From Psammoneis japonica (taxonomy: Eukaryota), in contig QPGO01000002.1 in assembly GCA_008632985.1 (NCBI GenBank), positions 620,001-684,000 of the forward strand: a stretch of DNA of 64,000 nucleotides. Reading direction: 5' to 3'. The notes beneath the pieces are model-generated. The model ran no database searches. It saw nothing but the letters and a program-made list of their open reading frames with translations, and was not told where the DNA came from. Shown in pieces: positions 1 through 62,030 of this stretch. The translations under genes were made by a program, and so were the position numbers. Every line of letters begins with the position of its first letter. The first letter of the stretch is position 1.

Positions 1-3000
1 CATTCTTCTGCAGGGTGCATTGGTCCCTGGGGAATTGACATGAGAGCCACTTTGTCACACACATGCTGCAGGCATGCATGTGCAAAAATTGACACATTGG
101 GGATTTCCCATGCTTCCCCTGTGCTCTCCACTGTGAGCTGCAAACCTGGGTCAAGAAAAAAATGTGCCAGTCACATGATGGCAATTGACTGCATCATCCC
201 ATTTATGCCACAGCCTTGCACCATCCAACCACCATTTTCACACTTGTCATGGAAGCATGTTGTGGCATTGGAGAGTGGAAAAAAATGGCAGTGAGTTGCT
301 TCACTCATTTGCACATGAGACTGAGCAAGTGCTGTGCAAAACACTTCACTTTTTCTGGTTGGTGCTGACTTGTGCCATTGACTGTTGCTGTCTGATGCCA
401 CCTGCTGCACCTTGCAAGCAACAGTGTGGAAACTCCTTGCTGTGCATCTTTTCATTGTGGTTGTCTTGCACACAATGTTGTTGTCCAAGGATCTTTTGGG
501 TGCACTGTGCACAGCCAACACCTTGGCTCACATGCCAGAACCTCCCCCCCCCATTCAACTGGGTGCCTGGCCCACAGGCCAGGGCTTCATGCAACCAGAA
601 AGCCTCCTGCTGTGTGTCTCACTGTGCACCACTTGCTGGGCTCCCCTGTGGCACATGGGGTCAGCCATCACACTCCCCTCATCACAGCCTTTGATGTCTG
701 CCACTCCAACTGGCCTGGTCTGACCCAGTGTGGCACCCTCTGCTGCCATTGTTGAGACCACCACCAACTCTTTCCGCAATCACAAAGTGGCAGTCACCTG
801 GCTGTGGCTCCAACCACAGTGTTTGCAGCCACACTGGCTGGCATCATGTTGTGAGTGCAGCATGGGTTGTGATGGCATTGGCTGCTGTTGACTGCAAGAG
901 CACAGTGGCTGAGCAGCAGTGTGACAGCACTTGTGCTTGCAAATGATGGACATTGCTTGAGATGGAGCTGTGGTGCTCAAAAGAGAGCACAGCAGTGCAG
1001 CCACTGCAGTGACTGCTGCAGAGCATGTGACAATGACTGCGTGACATGAGGTGCACTGACAACTCCCACAATGCTCAGCTGTGCTGCCTCCTCAAGTCAG
1101 TGCAACTCCTTTTGACTGATGCAGGTTCCTTTTTTGATGCACTCCCTGAGATGATTGGCGGGATGATGTGTGCACTGTGCTTCATCTGCAAAGCCCAGCA
1201 GATGGGGTCCAACTCCAAGAGCTGCTGCTCACGCAAGCTCTGGTGAGTGGGATGATGAAGTGGTGACTTCACTTTCTTGTTTGTCTTTGACTGCTTGTCC
1301 TGGCGTGGTGGGGGGCAGTGCAGGGTCCATCTTCAAGATCTGTGGTGCTCCAAGAGCATCATGTGGAGCAAGGTCACATGCAGTGTCCTTTGGTCAGCAT
1401 TTGCCCAGAACAGTTTATTCTGGTGGGAACTGGATCAAACTTGGGTTGCCATCAGACACTCTCTCTCCCCTTTGAAGAGGCCAGTGACCCCATGACTCAG
1501 GACATTGCTGTGGCAATTGCCAGCCTTGCAGATCCTGCTTGGCTTGCTGTTGGTCAATGGAAGTTTGTGATTGACTCTTGGCTGCTGACTGATCAAGTTG
1601 TGTCCTCACCTGCACCATCACCTGCCACTCCAAACAAGAGTCAAAGTGCAAGAGTTGTGCCCTGACCTGCATCAGGACCTGCCACTCTGGAAGAAGAGTC
1701 AAAGCAAGGTGCTGACCCTCAAGTTGAAGATGGATTTTGGGTGCCTTTTGGCACATGGCAGAGGAGACCAACAAGGATGCTGGCTCACTTTGGTGGCCTG
1801 TCAGACCCTTTTTGCCCTCTCTCCCTGCCAAGAACTGGAAAAGATTGTCAGATGGATGCAAGGAGATCTTGACCATCTCCACCACAAGAGTTCATCCCCA
1901 CACAACTTGTGGCACCAAGAGATTGAGAAGAGCACAGATGTTGCCATGCACATCTTGGATGTCAAATCAACTGCTCCCAACTCTGATGCCAACATGCTCT
2001 TGTGGATTGACGAACATGTCCAAGAAGCCCAAACTTGGGTGGTTGAGCTGGTTGTGGAGGTTCAAGCACAAGTTGAACATCCTGCTGGTGCCCCCCAGTC
2101 TTTAAAAAGGAAAGTGGGCACCCTCAAAAGTCAAGCATCTGTTGGTTGAGGTGTCTCAGGCTCACAGAGTCTTGCTCAAGGCAACAGTCCCTTGGAAATC
2201 AGGGCTTGGCTTCTTCATCTGGCTGAGAACTGAGTGGCAACATTCCATGATGCTGTGTCCTTGTTGTGCTCTGTTGGGCCAGCAACCTCATCTCATGAGA
2301 GTGCCGTTGCAACAGCAAAGGCACAATGAGACGTCAAAATCTCCAGCAAGGGCAGTTGCTTCCTTTGAACTGGTCCACCCTGGATCCTCTTCAACACTTC
2401 CACAGAAGGAGACACAGTGGAAGAACGCCAATGCTTGTCCACTCAGTTGAAGAAATGTTCTGACTGGCGTGCTGAAAATGGCATTTTGGGTGTGTCACAG
2501 TGAATCCCAAGGGGTGCACTTGAAGTTCAAAATTGCACGACAGTTTTGGCACATCAGACAACTGCTGATCCTTGTGTGCTCTGGTTGAGTCAAGGCATGC
2601 TCACAGATTCTCTGAACTTTGTGCAGCACTTTGCATCCTTTGCTGACTGCTGGATCATTGATCTCAAGACCAGAAGTCATTTCAGAGATGCTGAAGGATG
2701 GGAGGTGGCAGCAGCATCAATCAAGAAAATCTTTGAGGACATGCACCATGGTGCTCAATCCCTTGTTCAAGATGTGTCTGACATGGACAAGTTGGTTGTG
2801 GTCTGGAGATTGCTCAAGAGTCATGAAGTCATGCAAAACTGGGGCTTGCATTCATTGTCTTTTGCAACAAGATGCCATTGATCAAAGGATGGCATTTTTT
2901 TTAAGTCATGAGGTTGACAGCTGTGGAGAAAACTGCCAACGCCAATCATGCTGCCCTGGCCAATGTCAAGCCTGGGGTGTTGGCTTTGGAGGCCAAATCC

Positions 3001-5580
3001 AAATGACCCAGTTCTTTTGCTGGTGATGATGTGCCTTTCTCCCCTCTCCTGTCCACTGGGTTGCATTCAGGTGTGCCACTGCCCAGTGCATGTGCCTGTG
3101 GACAAGAGTTGGACATTGCACATTTGACAAAACCTCCAAATGCTTTCAAACATGTGAAGGTCTGTGTCATGTCTAGTTCTTTTTGGACATGGGCAATTGT
3201 GGGTCATCAAGTTGGCAAAACCTCCATGTGTTTTCTTCCGGTCACAGTGGAAGCAAGAACAAACCTGAAGGAGTTTTGTCAGAATGACCACTTCACATGC
3301 ATGCAGGGGTCCATCATTGAGCATTGGCAGTTGGCTGAGTTGTCTTTTTGCTGATCTGGCTTTTTTCAACACATCTCAACTTGCCCACATCCCCACATCC
3401 CTTGCCCTTTGACTGCATCCTTCCCAGCTGCTCTGCAGGTCTTTGTTGCCCTGTCTGAGATTCGCAATGTCTTGCACCCCTTGACCTCCTCCACATGGAG
3501 CCAACACATGCCCCACAGGAGCAGATTGGGGGGCATTGCCATTTGTGCTGTTCTTGTCACTTGCATTGGAGTGGAGGAAACAAGGTTCAGTCAAACAGGG
3601 TGCACTGCCCTCAGCGACCCTCCAACTCTTTTGCAAACCTCACAGTCCCTCTGCTCTTTGAGGCAGCACAACATTCCACCATCAAAGCCACCCAACCATG
3701 CTGGATGAGCTCTGTGGATGCTCCCAATCCTTGGCCTCTTCCAACTTCTGTTGTCCCTGTCCTTGCCCCTTCTTCAGTGTTTTTGAAAGGCAAGAAGGTG
3801 GCACAGTTGTTGACACTGGGAAACAAAGTCAAATTCTGTGCCTTCCTCCTGATTGGAAACACTCAATGGTGGCACACACATTTAGACTTGGGACAATGGA
3901 CATGTGGTGCTGCTTTGGACGCACATTGAATTTCTCATGTGTGCATCTGCTTCATGGATCAGTGTGCAGTCACCTGCCAATGGTGGTTCTCTGTCTTGGT
4001 TGTCTGTTGACAAGAGCCACCTTGATGGGTGTTTGAACAATGACCTCACACATGTTGTCCTCCATGTGAAAGCTGGCCAATCAGTGGGAGATGCATTGTG
4101 TTGTGCATCCCATTTTCTCTGGGTGCAGGAGCCAAGCAGTGCAAGCAATGTCTCAACAGCCACCAAGGCAGACAATGACTGCAGTCAACTCAGGGAAAGC
4201 ATCTCAGATGATGGAGAAGAGATTGCAGCACAAATCAGCAAAACACGCAACCCCAAACCTTGCATCCAATGCAACCTCTTTTGGTGTCTCAGAAAAGACC
4301 AATCTCAGGGAAGTGGGTGATGCAGAGAGAGCACCTGTGCACAGCCTGACAAGTGCTGAGGTGTGGGAAACATGGAAGTCATGGCAAGGACCCCTCAAGG
4401 TGACTGTCACACATCTGATGAAGACCCTGATGACGCCAGCCATGGGCAAAGCAGAAGCATTGATGACTTCCCCTGCCCCCCTGCCACTGTGTCAAGCAAG
4501 CCTCAATCTCTGTGGAAAGGAAACATTGATGATGGTGGCATGCAGCCTTGTGTTCCATCTCACAGCACCTCAAGATCAACAAGGCTTGATCAAGACATTT
4601 TGCTGCCTGTTGGCCATGCAAGAATCTCTGACTGGAATGGGAGCATGGCCTTCATGGAGTGCATCTTCACAGATGATGTGGCCAGATCACCACAAAACAT
4701 CAGGCATGACCAAAAGCAAGTCTGCCGCAGTTCACAAAAAAGCCAGTGGAGTGCAGTCAAGGCTTCCCAGCAACTGCTCTGGAAGAGCAGACAGATGAAA
4801 AGAGCACAGCTGGAGCCACCATGACAGAAATTGACAACAAGAATGGACAAAAGCGAAAGACTGAAACTCTGATGCAAAACAGAAATGAAGAGAGCAAGAA
4901 CAGAGACGACACAAAAAAGCATTGGCGCCGTGGCCTTCGCCAAGCATGCCCATGCTGGTGCCTGTGACAGCAAACCATGATCATGCACTTCTTGGCCTTG
5001 TTGTCACAATCGGGGGGGGGGGGGGGCAAACACACATGTTCTGGCAAAGCACACTTCTCATTCTTGGCATCATCAGCCTGCCATCATGATGCCGCTCAGT
5101 TTGCACGACACCCCGGGGTGACACCAGAGCGCCAAAACATGACCCCCAGGTTTAAAAGGAGCCCCAACAAAGTGGCACTGGTCACCTGCTCGGGGTCCAA
5201 GAGGAAAATCTCGACAAGTCTTTGCACCACATCCAAAACATTGCTGCTTGCTCATGTCGTGATCCAAGGACACTTGGTCTTTCAAAAAAATTCGCTGGCA
5301 GCCAAAGGCAGATCGACAGAAAGCCTTGATCTTCACCACAGCAAAATGGGATTTTCTCTGGATGGCCCTTTAGGGCCTTTTGTATCAAGGCTGTCATGGC
5401 TGCATTGTGCCTGTCTGGAAGTCCTCGTCTCATGGAAAAAGTCCTTGCTTTGACGGAATGCTGAGGATGATCTCTCATGGTGTCGATCAACTTGCTGCCG
5501 GTATCATCTATGGACGACTGTGCTTTTTCTAGCTCAATTTCAAAGCAAGAACAACGCAAACCACACCAAACGCAGCAGCG
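1..5580. mobile_element. TpA/CpG-depleted degenerate repeat domain 1 (transposon relics, runs off the window start)
   Basis: About one TA and no CG seen in the first 600 bp, with strong CA/TG excess. ORFs in all six frames are nearly Tyr-free and rich in Cys/His/Trp/Met. CpG reappears from about 4900 while TA stays rare until about 5580. Confidence 0.75.
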
Positions 5581-5631
5581 CAACAAAGCAACGTGACAAG
5601 AACAACTTCTCTGTTATCTATCAATCATACA

Positions 5632-8187
5632 ATGTTAGATTCTTCCTCGTCATGTTCTGCAGTGGGATTGTTGAAATCGAATTACCGCAGTCTCGGAGAG
5701 CCTCATTCGGTCCGGAACCGGTTCGTGTCGTATCTGCTGTCAAATCCACGGAGTTCGGCAATTCTCAAGAGCATTATTCATGAAACCATAGAGCACCACG
5801 AAAACAACAAACGACAAAGCAACGATATGAATAACAGTGCTTCTCTGCAGATTCAAGTCTTTTCCGTGTTACAGTTTGATCCCGTTCTGGGACATATGCT
5901 ACTGAGATACCCCTCGACGTTGCTTCCTCTATTTGAAGACGCTGCGGTACAAGCGCAAGAAGAACTGCTTTCCAATCATGCCACCGACAGAAGACTTGAT
6001 ATTGCGTCATGTTGTCGTCGATTTCGTATTCGCTTGACACACTTGCCACCAAATTATTGTTGCAAATCAACGTCTGCGTCCAATGTCGGTCGCATTTTGC
6101 AAACGAGCGGAACCGTGGTGCGAGCAACACCAACGTGCATGATGGAATACTCGAGAACCTATGTGTGCCAAAAATGCAATTATGAAACGGTAGCTCAAGT
6201 CGATTTGTCAACACCTGCCTTGGCTATTCCACAGCCATCAAACAAGTGTCCCGAATGTGGAAAGGCAAATTCGCTAGAAAAGAAATTACAAAATGGATCG
6301 ACGCACGCGGATTACCAACAAGTCAAGATTCAAGAATCCAAATCCAAGTCGGACGACCAGAGTGCCATTCCGCGATCGATCCTGTTGCAACTGACGCACG
6401 ATTTGGTCGACACGTGCAAACCAGGAGACGAAATCGTCGTGGTGGGGACTCTTCAGGCGCAATGGCCTGCGCCCTCGTCACAGCTTGTGCCGCAGGTTGA
6501 TTATCACATTACCACCAGTCTCTTGGTACATTCGATTCGAGTCATGCACAAACAAGACTTGTATTCCGAGTGGATGACACCCAGTGATGAGACGTCTGCT
6601 GAAGCTGAAAATGATCCAAACAATAGTAACAAAAACAACAATAACAATCCCCGAGACAAGTATCCTCAGGAGTTTGAAGAATTCTGGAATGCAGCTACGA
6701 AACCAATAGAGGCGCGAAATTTTATTGTGGGAGCCATGTGTCCCAAGCTGTATGGACTATTCACCGTGAAACTTGGACTCTTGATGGCTCTAATTGGTGG
6801 TTCGTCTCTGTCCAGTATTCAACAGCAGCAAGAATCTTCTCAAGATGGCAACAGTAGCGGACGAGCGCGAAAGCGATCCAAACATCGCGAGAATGAGCCA
6901 GAACAGTTTTCTCTTGGAACAAGTCGACGCTCGGGTAGTGGACAGGAGCAGCAACAAGGAACTACAGGATGGTCCACCACAGGTACAGCCACGACCAAAC
7001 GATCAGGGCAGGAAAGCATTCAAACAAAACGTCGTGCACAGTCGCATATTTTATTGGTGGGTGAAGCCGGCCAGGGCAAATCCCAGCTACTCAAGTTTGC
7101 AGCCGCACTCTCTCCACGATCCGTTTTGACCACAGGAACGGGTTGTTCTTCGGCTGGACTCACGGCAGCGGCGGTTCGGGATCCGTCCAAAACGGGTGGA
7201 AGCAATGAGTTTACACTTGAGGCGGGAGCACTCGTGTTGGCCGATATGGGAGTGTGCTGCATTGACGAGTTTGGATGCATTCGTCAAGAGGATCGTACCA
7301 CTATTCATGAAGCCATGGAACAGCAAACCATTTCTGTGGCAAAGGCTGGGATTGTGTGTAAGTTGAACGCACGCGCCACCATTGTCGCCGTGATGAATCC
7401 TTGTGGTGGTCATGGACGCAGTTCGGTTGGAAAGTATGACTTTCAACAATCGCTTGCTGACAATACCAATTTGGCATCGCCGCTCTTGTCGAGATTTGAC
7501 TTGATTTTCCTACTCTTGGACGCTGCCACGGCAGAACGAGACGACAAGATTGCTACCTTTCTTTTGAACCACGCCATTCAACCCGACGGAGCAACAACAA
7601 GTAGCAATGCAGGCGCACAGATTACGAGTCAGCATTGGAGTATGGATAAACTGCGAGCGTATATTGCTATAGTGAGGAGCAAGTTTCACCCCACGCTGAC
7701 TACCGAAGCCGCAACGCTGTTGCAGAAGTATTACCAAGTCGTGCGCAACACGCCATCGTCGTGTCAGTTACCAATTACGGTTCGATTTCTGGAATCCCTC
7801 ATTCGCTTGTCCCAGGCACATGCCAGACTCATGTATCGAAATATCGTCACCGAGGTGGATGCCATAGCCGTGATTGGAGTGATGGAGCAGTCGTGCGCTT
7901 CGACAACCTCTCATCACCCTCATTTCCTCGCAGAAGATGGGCCTGACGACGCCGATATGGATTTTCAAAGAATGAAGGCTGCAGTTCTTGCGAAATTTGG
8001 AATGGGAGGTCCAGCGCAAGGATATGGAGCTATGAATAGCATGGGAAACAACACGCCTACACTGCCCCCGGCCCCGCACGAGCAACCACAAGCACCTTCG
8101 GGTTGGGACCAGTACAAACCTGATAATAATGGTTATGGGCATATTCAAAACACCGCAAGTCGCCGTGGTGTGAATCCGTGGGATTGA
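5632..8187 (+). CDS. MCM9: DNA helicase MCM9
   Basis: Zn finger CQKC..CPEC, DYQQVKIQE, Walker A GEAGQGKS, LEAGALVLAD, Walker B CCIDEF, IHEAMEQQTISVAKAG, Arg finger LLSRFDL. The motifs PRSVLTTG and ITVRFLESLIRLSQAHARL are MCM9-like. Start codon uncertain. Confidence 0.88.
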   Translation: MLDSSSSCSAVGLLKSNYRSLGEPHSVRNRFVSYLLSNPRSSAILKSIIHETIEHHENNKRQSNDMNNSASLQIQVFSVLQFDPVLGHMLLRYPSTLLPLFEDAAVQAQEELLSNHATDRRLDIASCCRRFRIRLTHLPPNYCCKSTSASNVGRILQTSGTVVRATPTCMMEYSRTYVCQKCNYETVAQVDLSTPALAIPQPSNKCPECGKANSLEKKLQNGSTHADYQQVKIQESKSKSDDQSAIPRSILLQLTHDLVDTCKPGDEIVVVGTLQAQWPAPSSQLVPQVDYHITTSLLVHSIRVMHKQDLYSEWMTPSDETSAEAENDPNNSNKNNNNNPRDKYPQEFEEFWNAATKPIEARNFIVGAMCPKLYGLFTVKLGLLMALIGGSSLSSIQQQQESSQDGNSSGRARKRSKHRENEPEQFSLGTSRRSGSGQEQQQGTTGWSTTGTATTKRSGQESIQTKRRAQSHILLVGEAGQGKSQLLKFAAALSPRSVLTTGTGCSSAGLTAAAVRDPSKTGGSNEFTLEAGALVLADMGVCCIDEFGCIRQEDRTTIHEAMEQQTISVAKAGIVCKLNARATIVAVMNPCGGHGRSSVGKYDFQQSLADNTNLASPLLSRFDLIFLLLDAATAERDDKIATFLLNHAIQPDGATTSSNAGAQITSQHWSMDKLRAYIAIVRSKFHPTLTTEAATLLQKYYQVVRNTPSSCQLPITVRFLESLIRLSQAHARLMYRNIVTEVDAIAVIGVMEQSCASTTSHHPHFLAEDGPDDADMDFQRMKAAVLAKFGMGGPAQGYGAMNSMGNNTPTLPPAPHEQPQAPSGWDQYKPDNNGYGHIQNTASRRGVNPWD

Positions 8188-8196
8188 AATTGCCTC

Positions 8197-14929: not shown

Positions 14930-15900
14930 TTGCCGCACAGAGAACAGACGATGATGCAGTCGAAGTCGCGCGCATCGCGTCCGTCAGCCAGATCTGCGCC
15001 TGTCAGAGTCAGATCAGACGATGCACCCCAGTGTGTGTGGGCTTGAGATGGATGGCGGTGGTCGAGAGTTGACTAACTGTCATGCACAAAGCACAGCACG
15101 CTCCCTCTGTTTTTTTTTCTTTTTTCTTTTGGACAGTTTGGTCTCCTTTTTTTTGACGTGCTCTCTGGCCAGCTGCTCTCTGGTTGTTCCTTCTTTTTCT
15201 CTTCCCCTGAGCTGGCGCTGCTCCTCTCACCAAGAACAAAAGAGCTCACAGAGAGATCCAGGGTGGGTGCCAACAACCCGGGCAAGCAGGGCTTTCCAGC
15301 TGCTTGTGAAATTTTGCACAACAAACAAAAGAAAAGAAGCACTTGTGCACGTGCCTCACATTGTGGGGTCATTTGGAGCAAACTGCATTTTGCCCAATGT
15401 GACATCAGTGAAGCAGAAAAGCAGAAACAGCAGCACATTGTTGTGGGTCATTTCCAATGGCCTGGCCTTTGAGAGCAGGGCAATGCTGCTGGCACGGAGC
15501 AAGACACCACAGAAAATCTTGGGGATTTGCCTCTTCTCTCTGCTGCTGCTCATGTGTGCCGGCGCACTTGCTGGCAGAAAGAGATCAGTGCCCAAACTCG
15601 GGGGAGAGAGGTGAGTTTGTGTGGTTGTCAGTCTGTCGATGATTCAGGAAGGCAGGGCCACCAGGTGGTGTCGCATCGCACCGGCATCTGTCGTCGCATC
15701 GCCTGTGCAAGCAAAAAAACGGTCTGTCCTCTTCCAACCGGTCTGTCCTCTTGCAAGAGCGAACTGTGTAAAACCACTCTAAGAAGGGCTTCCCGTTGTT
15801 GCACATGCAAACCGTGTCTGCTGGCATCGGTCAGAAGGTCAACAGAGATCTTTGCGAAAACAGCGGGCTAAAAGAGTGTTGCATCATGGCACAATTGGAG
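14930..15900. mobile_element. TpA-depleted domain 2 (repeat relic, overlaps the left end of a MITE)
   Basis: Almost no TA. CpG is retained at the edges and lost around 15150-15500. ORFs here are largely Tyr-free. Confidence 0.65.
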
Positions 15901-43240: not shown

Positions 43241-43344
43241 GACAGCGCCAGTCAACAACTGTGTGCTCCGAAGATGCCAAGACAAGAAAATGTGACAGCA
43301 CTTTTCTCAAGAGCTTGAGACCAGTTGTTTGGCAGTTGCAGCGA

Positions 43345-44135: not shown

Positions 44136-45599
44136 CAGCACATCTGGAACCAAGAGGCTGCACATGCAGCAGAACAACCATGGATGTTCTTGAACATTTT
44201 GAGTGGAGAGGTTTCCCTGCCCCAGCTCACTGCAGTCCACAGCTGCTCTCATTTGGAACTGAAAGTTGCTGAACAAGAAGCCTGTGTTCTTGTCAAGTGC
44301 TCATTCATGGTGAACAAATGGATTTCAATGATCAACCAAATTGGCAAAGCAGGAAACCAGACTCAAGGAAATTTGGTCTCTCACAGCACATGGGCTCTTG
44401 AAAAGATTTGTTTTGAACCAGGCCACAGCACAACAACCACGAAGGTTGGGACATCAATGGTCAACAAGTTGGCAAAGTGAAAAACCACAATGAATGCAAC
44501 ACATGGCTCATTTCTGTGCACCCACACCCACAAGTTGATCCAACCAATTGTTGTTGTTTGTTGGGACTGTGGAGTGTGTCAACAATTTGAAAGTTCTTCA
44601 TTCATCAGTTGGCTTGCATTTTGCACCTTTGGTTTCCAACAATGTTTGCTTTCTGCTCATGCAATGTTTGACAACATTTGGCACATGCTCTCATGCTCTC
44701 ACTCCATTCTGTCATTTCATTGCCTTTGCTCCAACTGTTCTTCAAGCTGCCACCCCATTGTCTGCTGCCCCGTTGTCTCTTGGCTGCAGTTTGTCTTGCA
44801 TCTTGGTGTTCTTGGCTGTGCTGGCACTGGGCAGTGTTCCAATCTTTTGTGTTTCAAAGAGAGTCAATTTTTGTGACAGATTTTCATTGCAGGATGTGAC
44901 AGCAAAATCCCTGCCAGAAGACAACAGAGAAGTTGTTGGAGGTTGGCATGTTTTCTTTGGCAAGTGTGATGGCACAATGCTGCTGTTTTTGCCCACCTGT
45001 GTGCAGTGTTGAAGCGCACTTTGTTTCTCATCCTTGGCTGTTTTTGTCAACTTGTCTGAGGTTCAAGAAATGAAAAAGCACAAAAGGAAAAGCTGCCTGC
45101 TCCTGCATCACTCTTTTGACTTGTTGCCCCCCTTGTCACTCTTGTTGCCTTTCCCAAAGCATTTTTTGTTGGCATGTGCAGAGTCTTGGTGGATGCTGCT
45201 GGCATCTTCCTTCGATGTTGTCATTGTTCGTGTGCTGCTTGGGTGCATCCTGTGTTTTGTGCTCTTTTGTGTGGCAGTGATGTGCATTTTTGGTGCTGTG
45301 CTGAGCCAGTTGGCCTGGCAATCATTGCTTGCATCATTTGCAAGTTGTCAATTTTTTTGCTTTTTGTTGCAGCATTCATTTCAAAGTTTTGTGTTGTTTG
45401 AATCAACTTCAGTGAGTCATTTTGTTGGCATGCATTGCCAACACATTTTGCTTGTGAGTTTTCTTTCATTTTGCAGCTTTGCATGTTGAGTGGTCTTTCA
45501 ATCAGATGCAGTGCACCTGTTTTCAAAGAAGGTTTGTGTCTCAGTTTTTGTGATCTCAGTTGGCTCTCTCATCAAAAATGAATTTTCACATGTGTGCAT

Positions 45600-46620
45600 G
45601 GCAGTGCCAACAACCAACCCAATGAGCAATGGCAGAGGACATTGGTGGTCTCCTCTGGCAGGCCCCAGGCAACACTTTGAGAACTGTGGCTGGGTGTTGC
45701 AGGTTGACCTTGTGGCCTGGTGTTGTGGCTCCAAATTGCTCTGTGTCCAACAGCAACAGAAATGACCCCATGACAGCACCAATCAACTTGACAACAGCAA
45801 GCAGACCGAGGGCACTGGTGGTGCATCTGGCAGACCCCAGGCAAGAACACTTTTAGAGCTGTGGCTCTGAGCATTGCAAGGCTGATGTTGTGACCCTGGC
45901 CCGTGTCACTTTGTCCTCCCCAACAGGAGCAGACTTGAGCCTCCAAACTCCGGAGTGAAAGGAGCCCATGATGGCACCAACCAATCCACAACTGCCAGCC
46001 AGCAAAGAACACTTTTGGTTTTTCATGGCCCCAGGTGACACTTCAAGAACAGTGACTGGACATTGCAAGGACTGTCTTGTGGCATTGTGGCCCCATGTCA
46101 CCTTGTCCTCCTGCCTCAACTGGAGCAGACTTGAACTTCCAAACTCCAGAGCAAAAGGATCCCATGATGGCACCAACTGGCCTGGCAACTTCCAGCAGAT
46201 GATGCTGTTGGGCCCCAGGTGACACTTTGAGAACTGCTGTGGCTGGAGATTGCAAGGTTCATCTTGTGGCACTGTGACCCCATGTCACCTTGTCCCTGGC
46301 TGGAGCAGACTTGAATGTCTTCCCAACTCCAGAGTGAGAGGATCCCATGGTGGCACCAGCCAACAACCCAACGTCAGTGTCTGGTGCTCCCCAGGTGCAA
46401 CCTTGAGAACTGTGGTTGAGCATTGCAAGGTTGGTCTTGTGGCATTGTGTGGACCCAAGTCTCCTCACTCTGAACAGCATTGGCAGATTTGCCTTCCCAG
46501 CTCTAGAGTGCAGGGGTTCCCAATGACAGCAGTGCCAAGTGCCAACCAACCCAACAACTGCCAGCAGAGGACACTCGCTGGTGGCCTCTGGTGGCCCCAG
46601 GCAACAGACTTGTTCCAGAC
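45600..46620. repeat. Second array of the same 190-200 bp unit (about 5 copies)
   Basis: Same anchors as 42600-43240, in the same orientation. Confidence 0.85.
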
Positions 46621-47926
46621 TCAGGTGAGCACACATGTGAAAAAATGCCCATTTTTGCATGAAAAGCACTGTCCAAACTTTCAGTGCTGCCATTTCAACA
46701 TTTGTGTTGTTGTGAGTGGCGCAAATGATCCCATGCATGCATGTGCCCATGCATTCAAAGCTGATAATGGGCCAAGTTGATGATTGTTGGGTGGCACCAC
46801 AAGATGAGAGCTTGGTTTTCCAATGAGCAATTCATGATCACAGTCATGTGCAAATGAAAACACACAAAGCAAACATTCTCATGTGCAAATTTGCTCTTGA
46901 ATGGGCAATGAATTGCACTTTGTTTTTGCACATCAACACAAGTTGCTCTGAACAGATTGAACAAAACATTTGTTGATGACACAGTGCAAGAAGACATGAG
47001 AAGCAATGAAACTCTGCCCACACAATGGTGTGTTGACTTCAAACCCTTTTTCACTGCTTTGTCAACATGACAAACAACTGAAACACTTGCTTCAGTTGAG
47101 GCCATGGAGGGAGTGCACATGGCAATGGAAAAGAGCTTGTCCTTGGAGGCAAACTGTCAATGAAATGAGGCTCACTTGTTGTTGCTGACAGGTCAGTCTT
47201 CTTGTGCTGTGCTGCAGCCTGTGCCAACAATTGTCTTCATTGTCGTCATCAATGACACAGACTGTGTGAAATGCTGTGGTCATGATTGTCGTGTCATTCA
47301 ATTTCCCACAAGGTTGAAGAAAGTGGGCTGTCATGGTCACTTGAAGCCAAGGCTGTTTTGGTGATCAGTTGGCTTGAATTTCATTGACTCATTTGATCCA
47401 TGAACATGACAACTCTAACAAGGTGTCAATGAAGTTGAATGAAAAGCACAAAACAGTTGTTTTTTGTTTAAAAAGGCATGTTTTTCCCACCCCAACAAGG
47501 GGGGAATGGGGGCTGTGCAGCCAATGCCTTGCTGTGGCCAAAGTTGTGAGAGGCATCAACAAAAAATGACTTTGACAAGCTGTGCACAAATCCAGGTGCA
47601 AAACATGTGCCCTTTGACATCCCCACAATTGCTTGCATGAGGGTGCAAATGTGCCACACTTCACAAAAGTCCACTTTTTTGACTTGTGCATGAAGACACA
47701 TGACAGTCATTGTGACAACTTTTTTCTGGTCTGTTGAACTCCTTTTTCTCTGTCAGGCATGATCGGCAGTTCCAAGAACTTTTGCTCGGTGTTTGAATTT
47801 TGAGTCCGAGCTTCCCAAACACATTCCTGTTGTGCACGCCACCATTGCAGGATGCCAATTTGCAAGGAGCACCACGGTTTTGCAGGATGCCGATTTGCAG
47901 GACGCACCACGGTTGGAAATTGCTGT

Positions 47927-48390
47927 GGCCTCTTGGCCCCAATGCAATGACGGACATTGAGCTCCAACATTTGCGCAACACCTTGCCAGATGTGGCTGTC
48001 ATTCAGCAGATCAAAGAGCATCTCTGGCTCTTGGAAACATCATTGCAACCAATGCACATGGCTCTTGTTCATCCTGATGTAGACCGAGAGACAGAAGATG
48101 TGATTTTGGATGTTTTGGGTGCAGAAGTCTTTCAACAGACAGTTGGTGGGCAAGCGCTTGTGGGGAGTTGTTCAAAATTTTCAAACCAAGGCGGCATGGT
48201 GCATCCTCAAACAACTGTGGAAGACATTGAAAAGCTTGGTTCACTGTTGCAGGCACCACTTGCAGCAGGAACTGTAAATCGTGGGTCAGATGTGTTGGGT
48301 GGAGGCATGGTGGTCAATGATTGGTCTGCTTTTGTGGGGTTGGACACTGCCAGAACAGAAATTTCTGTCATTGAGAGCATCTTCAAGCTT
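47927..48390 (+). pseudogene. EIF6: 5'-truncated, hypermutated eIF6 gene fragment
   Basis: [64 protein letters not shown]. There are compensating frameshifts in the SALGN segment. Confidence 0.9.
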
Positions 48391-50430
48391 TTGGGACAGA
48401 GGACAACAGCGCCAACAATTGAGCATTGTTTCAAATGTGAGGAGCTCTCTGATCGATCAGCTTTCGCAAGTGACGAACACGGTGATGCAAAAAGAGCACT
48501 TTAGAATGATCAAAAACACTGAGTTTAAGTGCAGTTTTGCAGCACCAAATTGCACTTCACAACCATGCATCAATTGATGCAACCATTCAAACTGAGGCCC
48601 TTTCAACAGAGAGCAGTGCCAAGCCTTCATCCAGAGAGCAGTGCAGATGTTGTTGAGGAGCAGGAACTGACTGACTTTTTTGCTCCCCCCATTGAGCTGC
48701 ACACCATGATCACAGCTGCAAAAAGGAACTCTGGAGAGGAGTTTAAACTGTGATGTTGTCAGTTTTCTTCTTGTGGTTTCTGGCTTTTACTTCATCGCAG
48801 CTTTTTGGAGCCTGTCTGGTGAGCACTGGCATGCAGTGACTCATTCCCTCAGCAATCTCTTTTGTCCAATCTCACTTCATGCTGCATGCTCAAAAATTGC
48901 TCCAGACATTTCCAGTGCTTCATCGTTGGTCTTCTCAGTCACCTCACACCATTTGACAAGAGCAACAATGCAGCATTTTGAATTGCATCACCCCGGCTTG
49001 AGCAGGACCTCTCTGACTTGGAATCACTGTTCACCTGCTCGTGTTCGTTGTCAAGAATCTGCGTCTTGTTAAAGACCAAATCAAGAACTCTCTCAATCCA
49101 CTGCTTGATGGAGATTGTGCCTTCTTCAGCCCCCACACCAAAATTCTGTCCCATGACTTGATTGAAGGCGAGTTCGCAGCATTCATTCATTGTGTTGAAA
49201 ATCTTCTTTTGCCACACTCGTCCTTAAATTCGTTGTTGGTCAGCTTCCGTCCACTCGATTCCCTGAGTGCCGCTTGGAGCACGAGTGTGGTGACAGTCTC
49301 TTGGTTGCTCTTGTTGCCATCAACCTCACACTGCAGAGAGAATGGTGTGACGTGATCTCAGATGTTGACTTCAAAGTGGCTTCGAACGCCCTTTGCCCCG
49401 CCAAGTTCAACAACAATGTGTGACTTCCATGTCCAGGTCGCCACTGAAAAGCGGGAGAGTTCTTGTGCCCACAATGTGCTGCAGCCCAATCTCAACGTCA
49501 TCCACATCTTCACTGACCAGGCGTTGCAGAACTGCAAGGAGAAGTGGCTTGACCATGACTTCGGCGACTCTGCTTGATTGTCAACTGGCGACGGTCCTCA
49601 TTCTTGATGGCCTCATGCACACCTGCTGCCTTTGCAATGTCCACAACCAAGAGAAAAAAATTAGCAAATGAATCATCCCAATCCCTGCCAGTGCAATCTC
49701 GCGGTGCCCACCATTGAGATTTTGAGACAGTTTCCGGCCCTTTCGCTTTCCTTTGAACTTGGCTGTTTTTGGCTCTTTTTTGCTTCCTGTGCCTTCGTTG
49801 AGTTTCTTGTGGAAACAAATGGTCTTCATTCAGCTGGCTAAAATCAGTTGCATTGCAGAGTCCTGCTTTTGCTTTTCTCTCCTGTGCCAACGGCGCCAGT
49901 TTGTCTCGGCTTCTGTGCGCCTGTTTTTGTTGTCGTCGCTTTTCTCTTTTCTGCAGTCGTCTTCAGTGTTTGCACCTGGCTGCTGGGGCCCTCTGCTCTA
50001 GAGCAGCCACTCTCTGTTCTCTCTCCAGGTGCCAGCGTGGGGCAGAAAGGAGTTTGTTTCTACCGCAAGCTGCCGAAGAGCACACCTGAGACCCAACAGC
50101 TGAAACAGCGCGTGATCCCAGCGTGATCAACGCACGTTACCGGTAAAATTCTTTGAAAAACTGATTCCATCCAATGGTGGCGATGTGTATCAACTAAACA
50201 GAGCTTATTCGCCACCAACTTTTCTGCTCAAGACTGAACATAAAATATATTCAAGCATGAATACAAATGAAATGGTTGAAACGTCACGGTGTATCTTCTT
50301 CGTGTCAAGATCCGAAGGCAAAAAGAACAAAGAAGCCCAACAAGTTGAATGAGTGCGGCATCTCTTGTTGGTGCTACGAACAATTCGACGCTTGGATCAC
50401 ATAAAGAATCTGTTGAGAGGTCTGGGTAGT

Positions 50431-54509: not shown

Positions 54510-55751
54510 TCATATTAATGGAGTTTCAGTGCGATATGAACTAGGCCGACCTCGCACGAGGACACAGCATGTGCTACTTGCAATATTGCACAAGTCGCTT
54601 ACTCTGTTCATCAGAATCGGAGCTTTAGGAGATGTCCAAATCTTATATGTACTTACTAACCTGGGGTTCTTAAGGGGTTCGTGCATTTTAACCCACTTCT
54701 GGAACCATGAAGCAGGCTCAAAGTTTTTGGGAAGTTTATCTTTCCAAGCACTAAAGATCACGTCCTTCAATGTGAATCGTGAATACTCGTTGATCAGTTC
54801 CATCGTGTCGGTGCTCGCGAATTCACTGTCAAGCAATCTATCGTGCAATTCGTCAGGAAAGTGCAAAGCTTGTTTCACCAACGCTTCGGTCTTTTTCGGT
54901 TTGGCTTGCAATTTGGATTCGGTCCGTCTCATCTCGTCTTCCAATTCGCTGATTTTGCGTTTCTGACGTGCATTCCTTCTCCTCATTTCCACTCCAGCAT
55001 AGAAAAGATGTGAAATAATATCACCACCGTTTGCAAACAGAGCTTCAACGTTGGTATCGCGGCGAGTCTCTGGCAACAAGAGGAACTTGACCGACCCCCA
55101 AATTCTCGATTTCGCAACGGCTTCTTTCTTCAGCAATGGAACCATCTTTGAGATTAAGTCCAAATCAAACAAATCTGGGAAAAGGCTAAGCAATTCTGCC
55201 AATTTGCGGAAAGCGACTCTTCGCGTGTTTGGGAGATTGTACAAGTCGCTTGAAGCTAGGCTGGAAGCAAATGTTTGGAAAATCCGACGATTTGCTTCCT
55301 TATGTGACACCACTGGTGAACGTTTAGCCCCAATGGGCGGAGGCTGGGTATTGTACTTGATAGACCTCAGATAGGTAGCAAGGACTTTGTCACATTCGTC
55401 CAACATAGTCTTCATTTGGAATTCGTGAAACCACGGAATCAGAACTTCAACATTGTCGCTTGTGATCTTTGCCGCGCCCGCCGTCTCGGGATTAATGAAG
55501 GAATAAAAGAGCTTCCACTCCTCGGGGTCCTTGTCGGGGAAGGCAATCCTCGATTCTTCGCTCTCCTTCATACCGCTGGCGAGCATCGTGTCAAAGTATT
55601 CGCTGGCATAACTCAAGACTACTTTGTAACACGGAAATTCGGTGGCATCTTTTCCGACAACAACCACAACGTCGGGATCCTGGATACGGAGCCGTTTTGC
55701 CGGTGGAGGATTACCTGTTTGATCGTCTGTGTTGGGATTCTCTGTGTCCAT
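54510..55751 (-). CDS. BTB/POZ domain protein
   Basis: PDVVVVVG..EFPCYKVVLSYASEYFDTMLASGMKES..I.FPDKDPEEW..F. Confidence 0.85.
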   Translation of the reverse strand: MDTENPNTDDQTGNPPPAKRLRIQDPDVVVVVGKDATEFPCYKVVLSYASEYFDTMLASGMKESEESRIAFPDKDPEEWKLFYSFINPETAGAAKITSDNVEVLIPWFHEFQMKTMLDECDKVLATYLRSIKYNTQPPPIGAKRSPVVSHKEANRRIFQTFASSLASSDLYNLPNTRRVAFRKLAELLSLFPDLFDLDLISKMVPLLKKEAVAKSRIWGSVKFLLLPETRRDTNVEALFANGGDIISHLFYAGVEMRRRNARQKRKISELEDEMRRTESKLQAKPKKTEALVKQALHFPDELHDRLLDSEFASTDTMELINEYSRFTLKDVIFSAWKDKLPKNFEPASWFQKWVKMHEPLKNPRLVSTYKIWTSPKAPILMNRVSDLCNIASSTCCVLVRGRPSSYRTETPLI

Positions 55752-56101
55752 GTTGCGTTTAACGATGGGGAGAGTAATGACAGCGACGAAGACTTTGCCA
55801 TGTCGCTCTTCAGAAATACTGTAGATCTTCGCAACGGCAAGCAACAACTGAAAAAATCTTTTGTGCGATCTTTACAAGCCTGTCCGCCCGCCCCTCCCCT
55901 CGGCCCTTGGGTGCAAGTGCAGTGAGTGTTAGCGCGACTGGATGATTCTGTTCGCGAACACGACTGAAGAATCCGTCCGTCCTTCGCTTCGTACGTACCA
56001 GTTCCACAAAAATCGGCCATGAGCCATGACCCATTGAACATCATCTGAAGGCAGCGGCTACTCTAGAGAGAGCTCACAGTATGGAATGCCGAACAATAGC
56101 G

Positions 56102-58035: not shown

Positions 58036-58771
58036 AGAGGTATCCAAATTCCATCAGATTCAATCCATACATTGCCACAGATGCTGCACTGTTAAACTCG
58101 CCTCAAAGACTTCCGTTTGGCGACCACTACAGTAGCTCGACCATTTCTCCATGGTATGACCAATGCTTAGGATGAAGCTAATCGGCTACGCGAGAGGGCC
58201 GACCGATTGACGCAGTTTGTGCAATGACAAGGTTTAGCCTACAAGCATCCTTAAAATACTTCGGATCTATAGTGCTGGTCTAGTTTCCCATCGAGTTTTG
58301 GAATCGTCACTATGAGAAACATTGTTCCGTCGGTCGACTTCCTAAATCATGCTTATCACTGCACTTTGCTACAATCCAAAACTCGCGTTCGAGATGGAGA
58401 TAGCTCTCGAGAGACTGGCAGGGCATGCGACAAACAGAAATTGTTGTGAGAGCCATTGGAGCCAGTGGCACCGAAAGTGTGTCGCTGTTGATTTTTTTGC
58501 TGAAAGTTGCTTCTGAAAAGTTTATCGGAATTTCGTCGTCTGAACCAGGTCAGCGTTCTGAAATGCGGAGAAAACTTCCTGGAAGACTCGTCATTTAGAC
58601 TCTGGGAAGGTCGCACTAGATTCAAGTGTTTCTCCCATGGCCCGTGGAACTACAGCAACGTGTAATTTATGTTAATTGCTTCTCTCGGATAAGCGGGATG
58701 TGGAGGAAAGAGTTTTTGGGTTGCAATGTATGGCACAAGGGTGATTTCTCGATATTAGAGTGTTACCGGTA

Positions 58772-59788
58772 CTAGTATCCCTGACGTTGATTGCGTTCGC
58801 GCTCAAGCCGCAAGCGATACCATTCATCAGGCTCAAAGTATTCGGGAAGCTTATCTTTCCAGTCAGTAAAGATGACGTCCTGCAATTTATCTCGTGAATG
58901 CTCGTCGATCTTTTTCGTCGTGGAGTCGCTGCCCATAGATTCCTTGAAGGCAGTTCACTGTACAATTCGTATGGAAACCGGAAAGCTCGTTTCACTAACG
59001 ATTCGGCCTTTTCCGCCTTTGCTTGCAAAAACCGGTTTTGTTTGGCCTTGTGATTCACTTTCACAGCAGCATGGAGAAGATGTGAAATCATACTACTGTT
59101 GGCAAACACAGCGTCAACGTCGGTAGTATCGAGAGTCCTTGGTAAGAGGGATTTGGCCGACTTCCAAGTAGTCGATTTCGCTACGGCTTCTTCCCTCAGA
59201 AATGGAACCATCGTCGAGATTATGTCGAAATCAAACAAATCCGGGTAAAATTGCAGCATTTGTACCAATTTGCCGAGAGCGGCTCTTTGCGTGTGTCGGA
59301 GATTGTACAAGTCGCTTGAAGACAAATGTTTGTAGAAAGTGCGCATTGACCTTGACGAAGAATTGAGAAAATCGATAGACCTCAGAGAGTCAGCAAGGAC
59401 TTTGTCACATTCGTCCAACATTGTCTTCATTTGGAATTCGTGAAACCACGGTGTGAGAACTTCAACATTGTCCTTTGTGATCTTTGCCGTGCGCGCCGTG
59501 TCGGGATCAATGAAAGAATGGAAAGAGCTTCCACTCTTTCGGATCCTTGTCGGGGAATGCAATCCTGGATTCTTCGCTCTCCTTCATGCCGCTGGCGAAC
59601 ATCGTGTCAAAGTATTCGCTGGCGCAACTCAACACTACTTTGTAACACGGAAATTCGGTGGCATCTTTTCCCACAGCAACCACAACGTCGGGATCCTGGC
59701 TGCGAAGGCGTTTTGCAGGTAGAGGATCACCTGTGTGATCCTTTGAGCTTGGATTTTCCGCTTTTCTTTTTAAATTATCCGCCTCCAT
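58772..59788 (-). pseudogene. BTB protein paralogue with two frameshifts (about 59520 and 58945)
   Basis: Homologous to 54510-55751 along its length, but the homology switches frame twice (KEWKLF / HSFIDP; YSELP / KIDEHSRDKLQDVIFTDWKDKLPEYFEP). Confidence 0.8.
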
Positions 59789-59834
59789 CGTGAAATCCGT
59801 GGGAAGCCTCCTGTCAACTGGAGAGTTGTTGTGA

Positions 59835-60020
59835 CAATTTGAGAGAGCTGCTTCGAAGAATCGCACCGAAACCAAAGAACAATCGTGTCACCCTCAGATT
59901 TTGACGCGACTCACCCTTCCACGCGCAGGCACTGAACAATTTGAGAGAGCGGCTTCGAATTACACTAAAACCAAAGAACAATCGTGTCACCTTGAGGTTT
60001 TGACGCGACTCCTCGCCTTT
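59835..60020. repeat. Two tandem copies of a unit of about 100 bp
   Basis: acaatttgagagagc.gcttcgaa..aaaccaaagaacaatcgtgtcacc..ttttgacgcgactc occurs twice. Confidence 0.85.
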
Positions 60021-60029
60021 TCCTGCAGA

Positions 60030-62030
60030 CGCCACCAGCAATCGGCTTCATGCCAGAGTGCACGGTGCAGGGCCCTGCACACTCCAGGGCACCAGGGCCT
60101 GGGGCTCTGATGCCACTCACTCACTCACTCACTCACTCACTCACTCACAAGTCCTCTCAAGAAAAAAGCAGGGCTGCCATCTTGGCAGTTGATGAGAGGA
60201 GAAGACTGCGATGTTTTTTGCAAGTTGCACAGTGTCTTTCGGTGTTGCTGCAGAGACTCAACACTGGATCTGAGATTCCACCCAGCTCACAAACTCCTTT
60301 TAATTCCGATCTTGAACGAGCACTTCGCAGTTCTCTGCTCTCGTGACCGACTGTGCAACACGTGGTTGACAGTCGCAAACGTTCTGACGAACGGCGCGCG
60401 CTTCGTCACCAGACCCAGAATTGAGCTTTCGGCATGCTGGCGACTCTTCATTTGGGGAGCCTGTCAAGGGCACACATGACAGCTCCAAAAGGTTGTCCAC
60501 CGCTCAGAAAGAGCTGCAGTGCCACGAATTGCAAGACAATTGCGCGATTCACGTGCCCGAAGGGTGATTGTTGAAATTCGAGCTTCGCGCACGTAGAGCC
60601 TGTAGAAAATGCACCAGCCAGCCCGAAGCTCCGATTTTCGTAGATCACGCAGGAGAGCACCACAAGGTCATTTGATGAAATGACTGGGACCAAAATGAAA
60701 ATTTTGACACCACATCACACGCAGAATTGACATCTGCGCGAAGGGAGAATGTTGCTTCGGGCAACGACATTCCACCTTCGGGCACGTGAATCGCGCAATT
60801 GTCTTGCAATTTGTAGCATCTCATCGTCGATGGCATTGGTTGGTGCTTGGTGCACGTTAATGGTGGTCGTGCGCGCGGTCGATGGTCGCGTTTTAGTCTT
60901 GGATGCGACACGAAGCGGAAAACAAAAAAAACGCACGCGGTGCATGCTGGCGCTGTTACATTGTTGCTGGGTGTTGTTGTCTCCTGCGATGGCATGGAGG
61001 CATGCACAATCTTGTAACCACAGAATCAGCCCCAAAAGAGTCGGCCATCACAGGCTACAATCGCCACTGTCAGGGCCCTGTGTGCCGAAACTCCGAGGTC
61101 TGATCTTGCTTTCCGGATGGACAGCTTGCCAAGTTTCATTTTTGGCATGCCAGCAGAAAGTCAACATGCTTCTACATGCGACAGTTTCTCACACATGCAT
61201 GCGAACATCACGAACTCTGCGAGCTCCAACACGAGAACAACACAAAGCACGAAGAGTTTGCGAGAGAGCGAATGGCGTTGCTGACACACTGTGAATGTAA
61301 AGTAAAAATGCCAAAACATTGTTGTTGCACAACATGTGGATGGTTGGTCTGTTGGCAGACAAAATGTGTCGCCTTCAAAGCTGGTCAGAAGCTTCAACAG
61401 ACTGCACAGCTGTTTGCATGTTGTTGGGTCGTAACAGAGGCCTGCGTCCCCCACTTTGAATCATTCTCAAATGATGACCACAGCCAACTCCTCCACCAAT
61501 GTTGCTGTCATCTCCTGTGTCAAGTTGCTGTTCAATTCACACAATGCTCTCTGCAGCAGGAGAGCAAATGACGAGACTTCTAGCTCGTCCAACAAGAGGA
61601 CAATGCCACCGACTCAACAACTCTCCAGCATTTCTATCTCAGTCATAGATTTGTCATGTGACTGGTCAACATCCACAACCACAAATGTTTTTGGAAGTGT
61701 TGCTTGTTTGCACCCACAAAGCAGAGCCCTCCAAACTGCTGCTGCATGGAGAAAAGGACGACAAAGCAGCCAGTCACAGTTCCTGGATGAGCGACCTTTT
61801 CAGAACAAGTCCTCCTTGGGATCAGGCTGAATTCACTGTCATGCCACCAATTTGAGCTCTGCTGAGTCGTCCATGCCGGTTGTGTTTGCCACAGTGCTGC
61901 TTGAGTAACTTCCAATGGGGCCAACGCGTCATTTGCGGTTCTTGCATCCACAGAAACACATTCGGGGTGAGTCCTCCTTGGCCTCCAGCTAACTCCACCG
62001 TCATGCCACCACATTGAGAACTGCTGAGTC
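60030..62030. mobile_element. TpA-depleted domain 5 (CpG largely retained); contains a (CTCA)n microsatellite at about 60114-60148
   Basis: TA is scarce, ORFs are Tyr-poor, and the domain contains a mutated MITE. Confidence 0.65.
60520..60818 (-). mobile_element. MITE copy A (TpA-mutated)
   Basis: TIRs of about 44 bp (aattgcaagacaattgcgcgattcacgtgcccgaagg); inverted homologue of 62625-62935. Confidence 0.9.

Follow-up and report, generated by a model that had tools for sequence, protein, structure and literature searches.

Domain-restricted loss of TpA and CpG in intergenic DNA of the diatom Psammoneis japonica points to a TpA-directed A:T to G:C mutator alongside CpG decay

Background

In mutation-accumulation lines of the chlorarachniophyte alga Bigelowiella natans, 230 of 231 single-nucleotide mutations in regions of integrated giant-virus and virophage DNA were recently reported to be A>G or T>C (Mettrop et al. 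2026, bioRxiv 10.64898/2026.01.13.699255), and the preprint states that all of these A>G and T>C mutations fell at TpA. [quoted passage not shown] Neither CpG nor diatoms are mentioned in the preprint. Here we present an analysis of a 64,000-nucleotide stretch of the genome of the diatom Psammoneis japonica (assembly GCA_008632985.1, contig QPGO01000002.1, positions 620,001 to 684,000 of the forward strand; hereafter the window), in which five discrete intergenic domains have lost nearly all of their TpA, and the cores of two of them nearly all of their CpG, with a corresponding excess of TpG and CpA.

Two further processes provide the context for such a pattern. In fungal repeat-induced point mutation (RIP), C>T changes at CpA raise the TpA content, and the process is triggered by duplication as such. 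Decay of methylated CpG is also to be considered, diatom transposons being CpG-methylated. An initial annotation of the window, made from its letters, had proposed a reversed, RIP-like mutator acting on TpA in repeat-rich domains in addition to 5-methylcytosine (5mC) deamination at CpG, and its claims are taken up below where the results bear on them.

Results

Dinucleotide composition of the depleted domains

Ratios of observed to expected dinucleotide counts (o/e) were computed in 1-kb windows and in 250-bp bins across this single 64-kb window, and the counts in two cores, 1-4750 and 42500-47750 (10,001 bp in total), were compared with those expected from the background density. TpA occurs 13 times in the cores against 405 expected (Poisson log10 P = -152), and CpG 47 times against 561 (Poisson log10 P = -174). 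At 1-kb resolution, the stretches 1-4500 and ~42500-47000 have a TpA o/e of 0.00-0.05, a CpG o/e of 0.01-0.13 and a mean CA/TG o/e of 1.7-2.15, compared with ~0.45-0.85, ~0.8-1.3 and ~1.0-1.4, respectively, in the remainder of the window. Taken over the cores, CA and TG stand at 1.84-1.94 and the remaining twelve dinucleotides are near background. Losses and gains balance: 90.6 TA+CG per kb have gone from the cores and 89.6 CA+TG per kb have been gained, and the sum of pyrimidine-purine steps is constant (241.1/kb in the cores, 242.2/kb in the background). This balance indicates conversion by transitions, and not deletion, simple repeats or a foreign composition.

The depletion extends over five stretches, numbered D1 to D5 from left to right (1-5450, 15075-15768, 26231-26743, 42339-50000 and 60001-62000), which sum to 16,319 bp, or 25.5% of the window, and contain 46 TpA against 661 expected, with CA/TG in excess, as the initial annotation had stated for its five domains. 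The longest TpA-free runs measure 1750, 1270, 1212 and 1033 bp. Domain edges are sharp; between 26230 and 26744, for example, there is no TpA at all, versus 16 TpA in the 230 bp upstream. Two other properties ascribed to the domains, CpG-free cores and richness in repeats, were borne out in part. Cores free of CpG truly exist only in D1 and D4, whereas D2, D3, D5 and the flanks at 4751-5500 and 47751-50000 retain CpG at an o/e of 0.40-0.72. Repeat content could be demonstrated for D4 only, in the core of which the summed k-mer depth is 200-2687 versus ~59 for single-copy flanks; the flanks of the domains are of single or low copy number.

As a composition control, we used 656 kb of unrelated metagenome sequence, in which 2 of 2526 windows pass the same TpA and CA/TG filter. 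These 67 loci had been retrieved with an ABCG alignment and are mostly green-alga-like or of high GC content, so that they control for composition only and are uninformative on other diatoms. Both passing windows come from one 8590-bp metagenome contig (L063) which has a GC content of 0.60 and, throughout its length, a TpA o/e of 0.33, a CpG o/e of 0.87 and a CA/TG o/e of 1.70.

In the 10 kb of cores the stop triplets TAA and TAG number 5 and 6, and TGA 273, in agreement with the loss of TAA and TAG that had been predicted. As a result of this loss, the depleted DNA contains long spurious open reading frames (ORFs) without relatives, such as that at 4070-4795 (242 amino acids). The only match of this ORF among all representative proteins (E=4e-8), a protein of low complexity made up of tandem repeats, was discounted as chance.

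Direction of change

The direction of conversion can be read from copies of which one lies inside a domain and the other outside. A broken copy of an ABCG half-transporter gene lies within D4, and the intact gene stands upstream of that domain; the short strings quoted in the initial annotation are found in the alignment of both. At 36 aligned TpA of the intact gene, the copy has TG in 15 cases and CA in 13, with none kept, and at 38 CpG it has CA in 19 and TG in 16, with one kept; TG was unchanged at 41 of 61 positions and CA at 44 of 61. All seven aligned tyrosine codons (TAY; Y, pyrimidine; R, purine) are lost in the copy, five as TGY and two as CAY, as predicted, and the copy carries stop codons. 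The intact gene was compared with two outgroup proteins (P0060 and P0061), to which its product is 69% and 64% identical; identity to many named diatom ABCG proteins is 35-39%. At 124 codons the intact gene and both outgroup proteins are identical, and the in-domain copy differs at 48 of them, the reverse case being found at 2; the intact gene accordingly served as the proxy for the ancestral state.

A second pair is provided by a pseudogene of the translation factor eIF6 in the flank of D4. Its paralogue appears as a second contig in a public sequencing run (X1) and also in an RNA-like run (X2), with 52-53 letters different over 47880-48336. Among the 23 differences listed, 11 are CG>TG/CA and 3 are TA>CA/TG toward the window copy. 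The pseudogene carries a 35-bp tandem duplication at 47845-47914, and the paralogue contigs skip exactly 35 bases there (joint 47844 to 47880). Also, in a terminal-inverted-repeat (TIR) element that begins in D3, the left arm, which lies in the domain, has CA at both positions where the right arm has CG. We regard the direction from TA and CG to TG and CA as settled by the ABCG pair with its outgroups and by the expressed eIF6 paralogue.

The depleted sequence is itself carried by reads. Contigs of run X1, built from exact 31-mers, have a mean depth of ~59, equal to that of the flanking genes, and each piece shows 0-5 differences from the depleted sequence; they carry the TG and CA bases. The 17 differences between window and contigs in D4 comprise 16 transitions, of which 7 are CG<->TG/CA and 2 are TA<->TG/CA, the latter being the only hint of change that may arise de novo. 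Exact 31-mer depth of ~59 is incompatible with error-prone long reads, and makes a base-calling artefact unlikely.

A young repeat pair separates TpA loss from CpG decay

Two copies of a repeat resembling a miniature inverted-repeat transposable element (MITE), one in D5 (60519-60819) and one outside the domains (62624-62936), offer a much younger comparison. In their well-aligned core, T>C is seen at 8 of 12 TpA, and the remaining A/T bases (132) and all C/G bases (136, which include 22 CpG) are unchanged. Counted per base, A:T>G:C changes affect 8/24 positions at TpA versus 0/132 elsewhere (p=1e-7), and all eight lie on one strand. With 8 of 12 TpA and 0 of 22 CpG changed, the process acting on TpA is separate from CpG decay, and faster. 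The flanks of D1 and D4, which are nearly free of TpA (o/e 0.07) yet hold CpG at an o/e of 0.40-0.44, agree with a loss of TpA that is independent of the loss of CpG. The second, domain-confined, TpA-directed A:T>G:C process that had been proposed beside 5mCpG decay is in this respect upheld.

In the old ABCG pair the same two specificities coexist. A:T>G:C changes there affect 21/50 bases at TpA versus 41/276 elsewhere (p=4e-5), which, together with the young pair, shows that T>C rates are not equal across contexts, and C:G>T:A changes affect 29/65 bases at CpG versus 31/253 elsewhere (p=4e-8). The slower loss of CpG thus bears the signature of what may be 5mC deamination, complete only in the older, multi-copy cores.

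The restriction follows the domains and not the repeats as such: the repeat copy outside the domain is unmutated, and single-copy flanks within a domain are mutated. The suggested likeness to a RIP in reverse therefore does not extend to the trigger, the process not being induced by repeats.

Sequence context at TpA

The few TpA that survive are far from a random sample. YTAR accounts for 10 of the 13 survivors of the cores and, where depletion is partial, for 25 of 60 (p 1e-6 to 3e-5), compared with 15.7% of background TpA overall and 18.5% outside ORFs, whereas RTAY accounts for 0 of 13 and, in partial domains, 6 of 60, against 25-29% in the background. TpA thus persists where the A on both strands precedes a purine, which indicates that the preferred target is 5'-TAY-3' or, equivalently, the T of 5'-RTA-3'.

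For mixed contexts this rule forecasts the outcome, RTAR becoming RCAR and YTAY becoming YTGY, and 16 of 19 mixed-context changes with known ancestors are as forecast (p=0.004). In the young pair, RTAY was converted in 6 of 6 cases and RTAR in 2 of 6. CpG outcomes in the same comparison follow no equivalent context rule (11 vs 6, p=0.33). Over the cores, the gain in YTGY+RCAR is 30.0/kb versus 13.9/kb in YCAY+RTGR; with CpG split evenly, nearly all mixed-context TpA changes fall in the forecast direction, on the assumption that the cores formerly had background composition. What the surviving and converted contexts newly show is a target motif, TAY. ADAR enzymes, by comparison, favour a 3' G, whereas the 3' preference here is for a pyrimidine.

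Anatomy of the domains and their surroundings

The coordinates and composition of the domains, and of the repeats and gene copies discussed above, are collected in Table 1.

Table 1. Depleted domains, repeats and gene copies in the window (TA, CG, CA and TG are o/e values)
Feature	Position	Strand	Characteristics
D1 core	1-4750	n/a	TA 0.02, CG 0.06, CA 1.84, TG 1.94; 6 TpA, 19 CpG; continues past left end of window
D1 flank	4751-5450	n/a	TA 0.07, CG 0.40; TpA only at 5153, 5371 and 5383, dense from 5502
D2 island	15075-15768 (~695 bp)	n/a	Intergenic; TpA lacking between 15074 and 15769 and dense beyond both; TA 0.02, CG 0.42
D3 island	26231-26743 (~514 bp)	n/a	No TpA; TA 0.03, CG 0.65; spans left end of TIR element
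TIR element (~2.2 kb, 39-nt TIRs, 95% complementary)	26352-28560	n/a	Partial TpA depletion throughout
Intact ABCG half-transporter, first large open frame	39643-41256	+	ABC_tran (E=4e-22), ABC2_membrane_7
D4 core	42339-47750	n/a	TA 0.02, CG 0.09 (measured on 42500-47750); multi-copy
ABCG broken copy	43441-44238	+	Inside D4; 70% identity to 39919-40545, plus 40666-40760
D4 flank	47751-50000	n/a	TA 0.07, CG 0.44; k-mer depth 64-139, single or low copy
eIF6 pseudogene copy	47797-48504	+	Pfam eIF-6 (E=9.6e-33), profile positions 68-196 only
D5	60001-62000	n/a	TA 0.16, CG 0.72, CA 1.58, TG 1.55
MITE-like repeat, palindromic ends	60519-60819	+	Inside D5; 92.9% identity, inverted orientation, to 62624-62931
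MITE-like repeat, copy outside domains	62624-62936	-	TpA kept; local TA 0.68-0.75

D1 ends ~150 bp or less before the open frame of an MCM gene (ORF 5533-8187), and the ORFs of its core match no Pfam family. D4 sits between RNA-derived contigs that reach 42008 on one side and start at 50332 on the other, contigs being unable to define transcript ends; its flank stops ~300 bp before the latter, a spliced X2 contig that belongs to the next gene. Although none of the listed runs is registered as RNA, the RNA-like character of run X2 is seen in a GT..AG joint at 50851/50934 that is lacking from the continuous X1 contig. X2 gives no cover over 42452-43402 and 44354-47523, which we do not take as evidence of silence. 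The D4 core contains a 195-bp tandem repeat at 42629-42991. Around the TIR element, the region 26001-28500 has a TA o/e of 0.24-0.36 with a CG o/e of 0.74-1.0. D5 retains most of its CpG, its TpA is strongly reduced, and we class it as a young or partial domain. Directly beyond its edge, and of normal TpA content, is a 171-bp tandem repeat (62022-62365) whose 2 copies have 88% matches.

The depleted stretches are intergenic. Among 142 ORFs of at least 70 amino acids from the five stretches and adjoining partly depleted DNA (~18 kb), Pfam searches found only eIF-6, plus three sub-threshold chance matches, and 57 ORFs gave no PHROGs family, a weak test since that library represents prokaryotic viruses. 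Rfam and tRNA scans found none. The mutated targets are the TIR element, the MITE-like repeat, the high-copy repeat and the host pseudogenes (ABCG, eIF6); the ORFs scanned encode no protein domain of viral or transposon type.

By Pfam, the normal parts of the window encode MCM, HSF, bZIP, a PLAA-like WD40 protein, pyruvate kinase, three FUT8-like paralogues, the ABCG half-transporter and others. The closest named relatives of these genes are from diatoms, and the eIF6 shares 77% identity with its Ditylum counterpart. The FUT8-like cluster (alpha-1,6-fucosyltransferase N/catalytic domain; 31763-36344) comprises three paralogues, two of which form a diverged inverted pair of ~71-74% identity. 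A direct duplication (54704-55742 and 58819-59758, 74% identity) covers two features of the minus strand, a gene with a BTB domain (54510-55871) and an ORF without Pfam family (58672-59583). An intergenic low-complexity block of CTAG-, TAGAG- and CTACT-type words at 24120-24410, situated shortly upstream of a glycosyltransferase gene (24548-26104), has a composition opposite to that of the depleted domains, with 41 TpA in one 250-bp bin and a TpA o/e of 1.2-1.3.

Discussion

Two transition processes in putatively silent DNA

We consider it likely that two separate transition processes have acted in place on silent intergenic, repeat and pseudogene DNA of this diatom. The first would be a very fast, region-restricted change of A:T to G:C only at TpA, preferring the A of 5'-TAY-3', which would eventually erase nearly all TpA; the second would be a slower conversion of CpG to TpG/CpA that resembles 5mC deamination. 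Jointly they would turn all pyrimidine-purine steps into CA/TG and destroy tyrosine codons and the stops TAA and TAG. Of this picture, the comparisons above show the footprint, its direction, its preference for TpA and for TAY, its independence from the loss of CpG and its confinement to domains and not to repeats. The domains would correspond to putative silent chromatin with limits near the neighbouring genes, and targeting is probably by chromatin state or small RNAs.

Three other accounts were rejected. The mass balance and the pseudogenes speak against a selection that removes TpA; foreign DNA with a composition of its own is ruled out by host genes that show the conversion; and GC-biased gene conversion is ruled out since it would lack TpA specificity and would not yield CG>TG.

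Several points weigh against the two-process account and have to be set beside it. Run X1 may derive from the assembly's own sample and was available as contigs, and the read check accordingly excludes random or long-read base-calling error but is not an independent confirmation. The footprint contains no de novo event, and the alignment that can be polarised amounts to ~1.6 kb in one 64-kb window. The young pair is not strictly polarised: read in reverse, it would show C>T at 8/28 CpA, a RIP-like pattern. A single terminal position can be polarised by four repeat arms, with T in three and C in the D5 arm only, and TA>CA is preferred because of this three-to-one distribution and because the TpA o/e of D5 is 0.16. 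The ABCG pair, at 70% identity, shows an asymmetry that may be alignment noise: A>G is raised where an A precedes (10/47, versus 4/40 in the reverse-complement context), and T>C where a C follows (13/45, versus 4/54). No strand-coordinated runs are seen among the TG/CA outcomes of the old ABCG copy (runs test p=0.84 for TA, 0.16 for CG), which after saturation neither supports nor excludes one-strand events. Lastly, an adenine deaminase and a thymine modification are inseparable on the strength of sequence alone.

The agent of TpA loss

As to the agent, our best guess, to which we would give slightly less than an even chance, is a DNA adenine deaminase that acts on one exposed strand. It is favoured by the strict dependence on the 5' neighbour, the additional effect of the 3' neighbour and the eight of eight one-strand changes of the young pair, in all of which it would resemble enzymes of the AID/APOBEC type. 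TAY resembles both the U-A-C of a tRNA loop that is the natural site of the adenine deaminase TadA and the YAC preferred by early adenine base editors. To our knowledge, no natural genomic DNA adenine deaminase with such a role has been characterised.

The strongest competitor, which we judge unlikely, is a lesion of thymine, whereby a TET/JBP-type dioxygenase would mark the T of 5'-RTA-3' in silenced DNA (as 5-hydroxymethyluracil, 5hmU, as 5-formyluracil, or as a base-J-like derivative) and mispairing with G or error-prone repair would give T>C. Oxidised thymines do favour T>C, and since TAY is RTA on the opposite strand, the motif fits this mechanism equally well. There is also a precedent in dinoflagellates, which like diatoms belong to the stramenopile-alveolate-rhizarian assemblage (SAR), where 5hmU made by a TET/JBP enzyme is described as enriched on repeats and as silencing transposons (PMC11572971). 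However, contigs from accurate reads show plain C and G, so that what is seen is a fixed change instead of a modification still in place; the clustering on one strand in the young pair (8 vs 0) is more typical of a single-strand deaminase; and for diatoms the literature consulted gave no sign of a base of this kind.

One candidate of the initial annotation, an error-prone repair of patches by a process of the Pol eta type, would be set off by the T:G mismatches that arise from 5mC deamination in methylated DNA. It has the attraction of connecting both processes, CpG being restored while adjacent A:T pairs mutate, and the changes seen are indeed A>G after T and confined to one strand in the young pair. 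The hotspot motif of Pol eta is WA (W, A or T), which includes ApA, but in the young pair none of 27 A after A and none of 22 T before T has changed (0/49 ApA/TpT bases) against 8 of 12 TpA. Moreover, the strong influence that the 3' neighbour of the A has here is not a known feature of Pol eta, and the loss of TpA extends into CpG-retaining stretches beside genes. This route to TpA loss we now find very improbable.

An artefact of sequencing, base calling or polishing, caused by modified bases in heterochromatin, might be suspected because a domain-wide and almost 100% complete pattern is unusual for biology, and because the supporting run possibly shares its sample with the assembly. We give it hardly any credence, given that exact 31-mer contigs at flanking single-copy depth carry the depleted sequence, that indels, transversions and the 35-bp duplication further set the copies apart from their intact partners, that these partners, lying elsewhere, are normal and partly converted domains exist, and that in another alga, lines sequenced with Illumina are reported to acquire the same signature de novo (bioRxiv 10.64898/2026.01.13.699255). 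Finally, A-to-I hyperediting of RNA by an ADAR-like enzyme, followed by reverse transcription and insertion, so that the copies arrived premutated, could draw on the gene fragments (ABCG, eIF6) within the domains and on the preference of the enzyme for U before the edited A (bioRxiv 10.64898/2026.01.13.699255), but is the least credible of all, since both strands were hit equally in the ABCG copy (15 TG vs 13 CA), non-genic single-copy flanks are converted up to the next genes, and the enzymes are described as metazoan (Iyer et al. 2011, PMC3239186).

Implications

Returning to the deaminase, enzymes of this class that are specific to stramenopiles and have SAM and Tudor domains fused to them have been described (Iyer et al. 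2011, PMC3239186), and such a fusion, or a paralogue of ADAT2/TadA, offers a lead to candidate enzymes. It is tempting to go further and propose that diatoms and chlorarachniophytes share an ancient genome defence, in which a TAY-specific adenine deaminase, guided by chromatin or small RNAs, would act on single-stranded silenced DNA and erase every TpA. We put this forward tentatively, as a doubtful but possible extension; if true, it would mirror fungal RIP and would be nature's parallel to the adenine base editors that have been engineered. Should the agent be a natural DNA adenine deaminase, it would represent a new class of genome-defence enzymes and be of practical interest for base editing.

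Among the papers listed by a literature search, for which "TpA" is an ambiguous term and which did not extend to subscription journals, none describes a depletion or hypermutation specific to TpA in diatoms. The phenomenon does have a precedent, the TpA signature being known de novo from B. natans (bioRxiv 10.64898/2026.01.13.699255). This is apparently the first evidence for the phenomenon in diatoms and not its first description. A TpA-specific, region-targeted A:T>G:C mutator is otherwise reported from one 2026 preprint on one rhizarian alga, and the more complete footprint in a diatom suggests that such a mutator is widespread among major marine phytoplankton. To what is known from that alga, the window adds the TAY trinucleotide target, the separation from CpG decay with the order of the two rates, and domains that end near genes.

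There are practical consequences as well. Gene predictors may call the long spurious ORFs of depleted DNA genes, and the domains inflate divergence-based ages of repeats and pseudogenes and can mislead composition-based searches for foreign DNA.

Comparison with known systems

The process proposed here has features in common with several known mutators. Like the AID/APOBEC enzymes it depends strictly on the base 5' of its target, shows a preference at a further neighbouring position and, in the young pair, leaves a strand-coordinated cluster (8/8 on one strand), but those enzymes deaminate C, not A. With the decay of 5mCpG by deamination it shares CG>TG/CA, seen at 35 of 38 CpG in the ABCG copy and in a CpG o/e of 0.06-0.09 in the cores, a depletion deeper than in typical methylated genomes. 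That decay, however, is unable to remove TpA and accounts for just one half of the pattern.

The likeness to fungal RIP is that of a transition-only, dinucleotide-specific mutator which degrades repeats and duplicated genes, can leak into adjoining DNA and leaves compositional domains. The direction is opposite: RIP is described as C>T (PMC7296669), whereas in the window, as polarised by the outgroups, TpA is lost and CpA/TpG gained. The two differ also in that the duplicated copy outside the domain was left untouched here and single-copy flanks were changed.

The closest match is the TpA hypermutation of B. natans. That alga is a chlorarachniophyte, on another branch of the supergroup, and its hypermutation was observed de novo, whereas the process in the diatom is inferred from its footprint. 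What is targeted in the diatom window is repeat DNA that is non-coding, pseudogenes of the host and intergenic islands, with neither viral nor transposon protein domains; near-total loss of CpG accompanies that of TpA; and TpA falls to an o/e of 0.02, compared with a rho of 0.45 in the giant-virus region of B. natans. The 3' preference that defines TAY is seen here, the comparison with B. natans being made at the level of TpA only. Nevertheless, both systems are marked by changes that are nearly exclusively A>G/T>C, at TpA to give TpG/CpA, in discrete regions that in B. natans are transcriptionally quiet, and by a TpA-depleted, CpA+TpG-enriched footprint, some B. natans clusters lying in transposon-like genes. 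By this analogy we infer that the mutator that shaped the depleted domains of P. japonica would belong to the same kind as the TpA hypermutation that arises de novo in B. natans.

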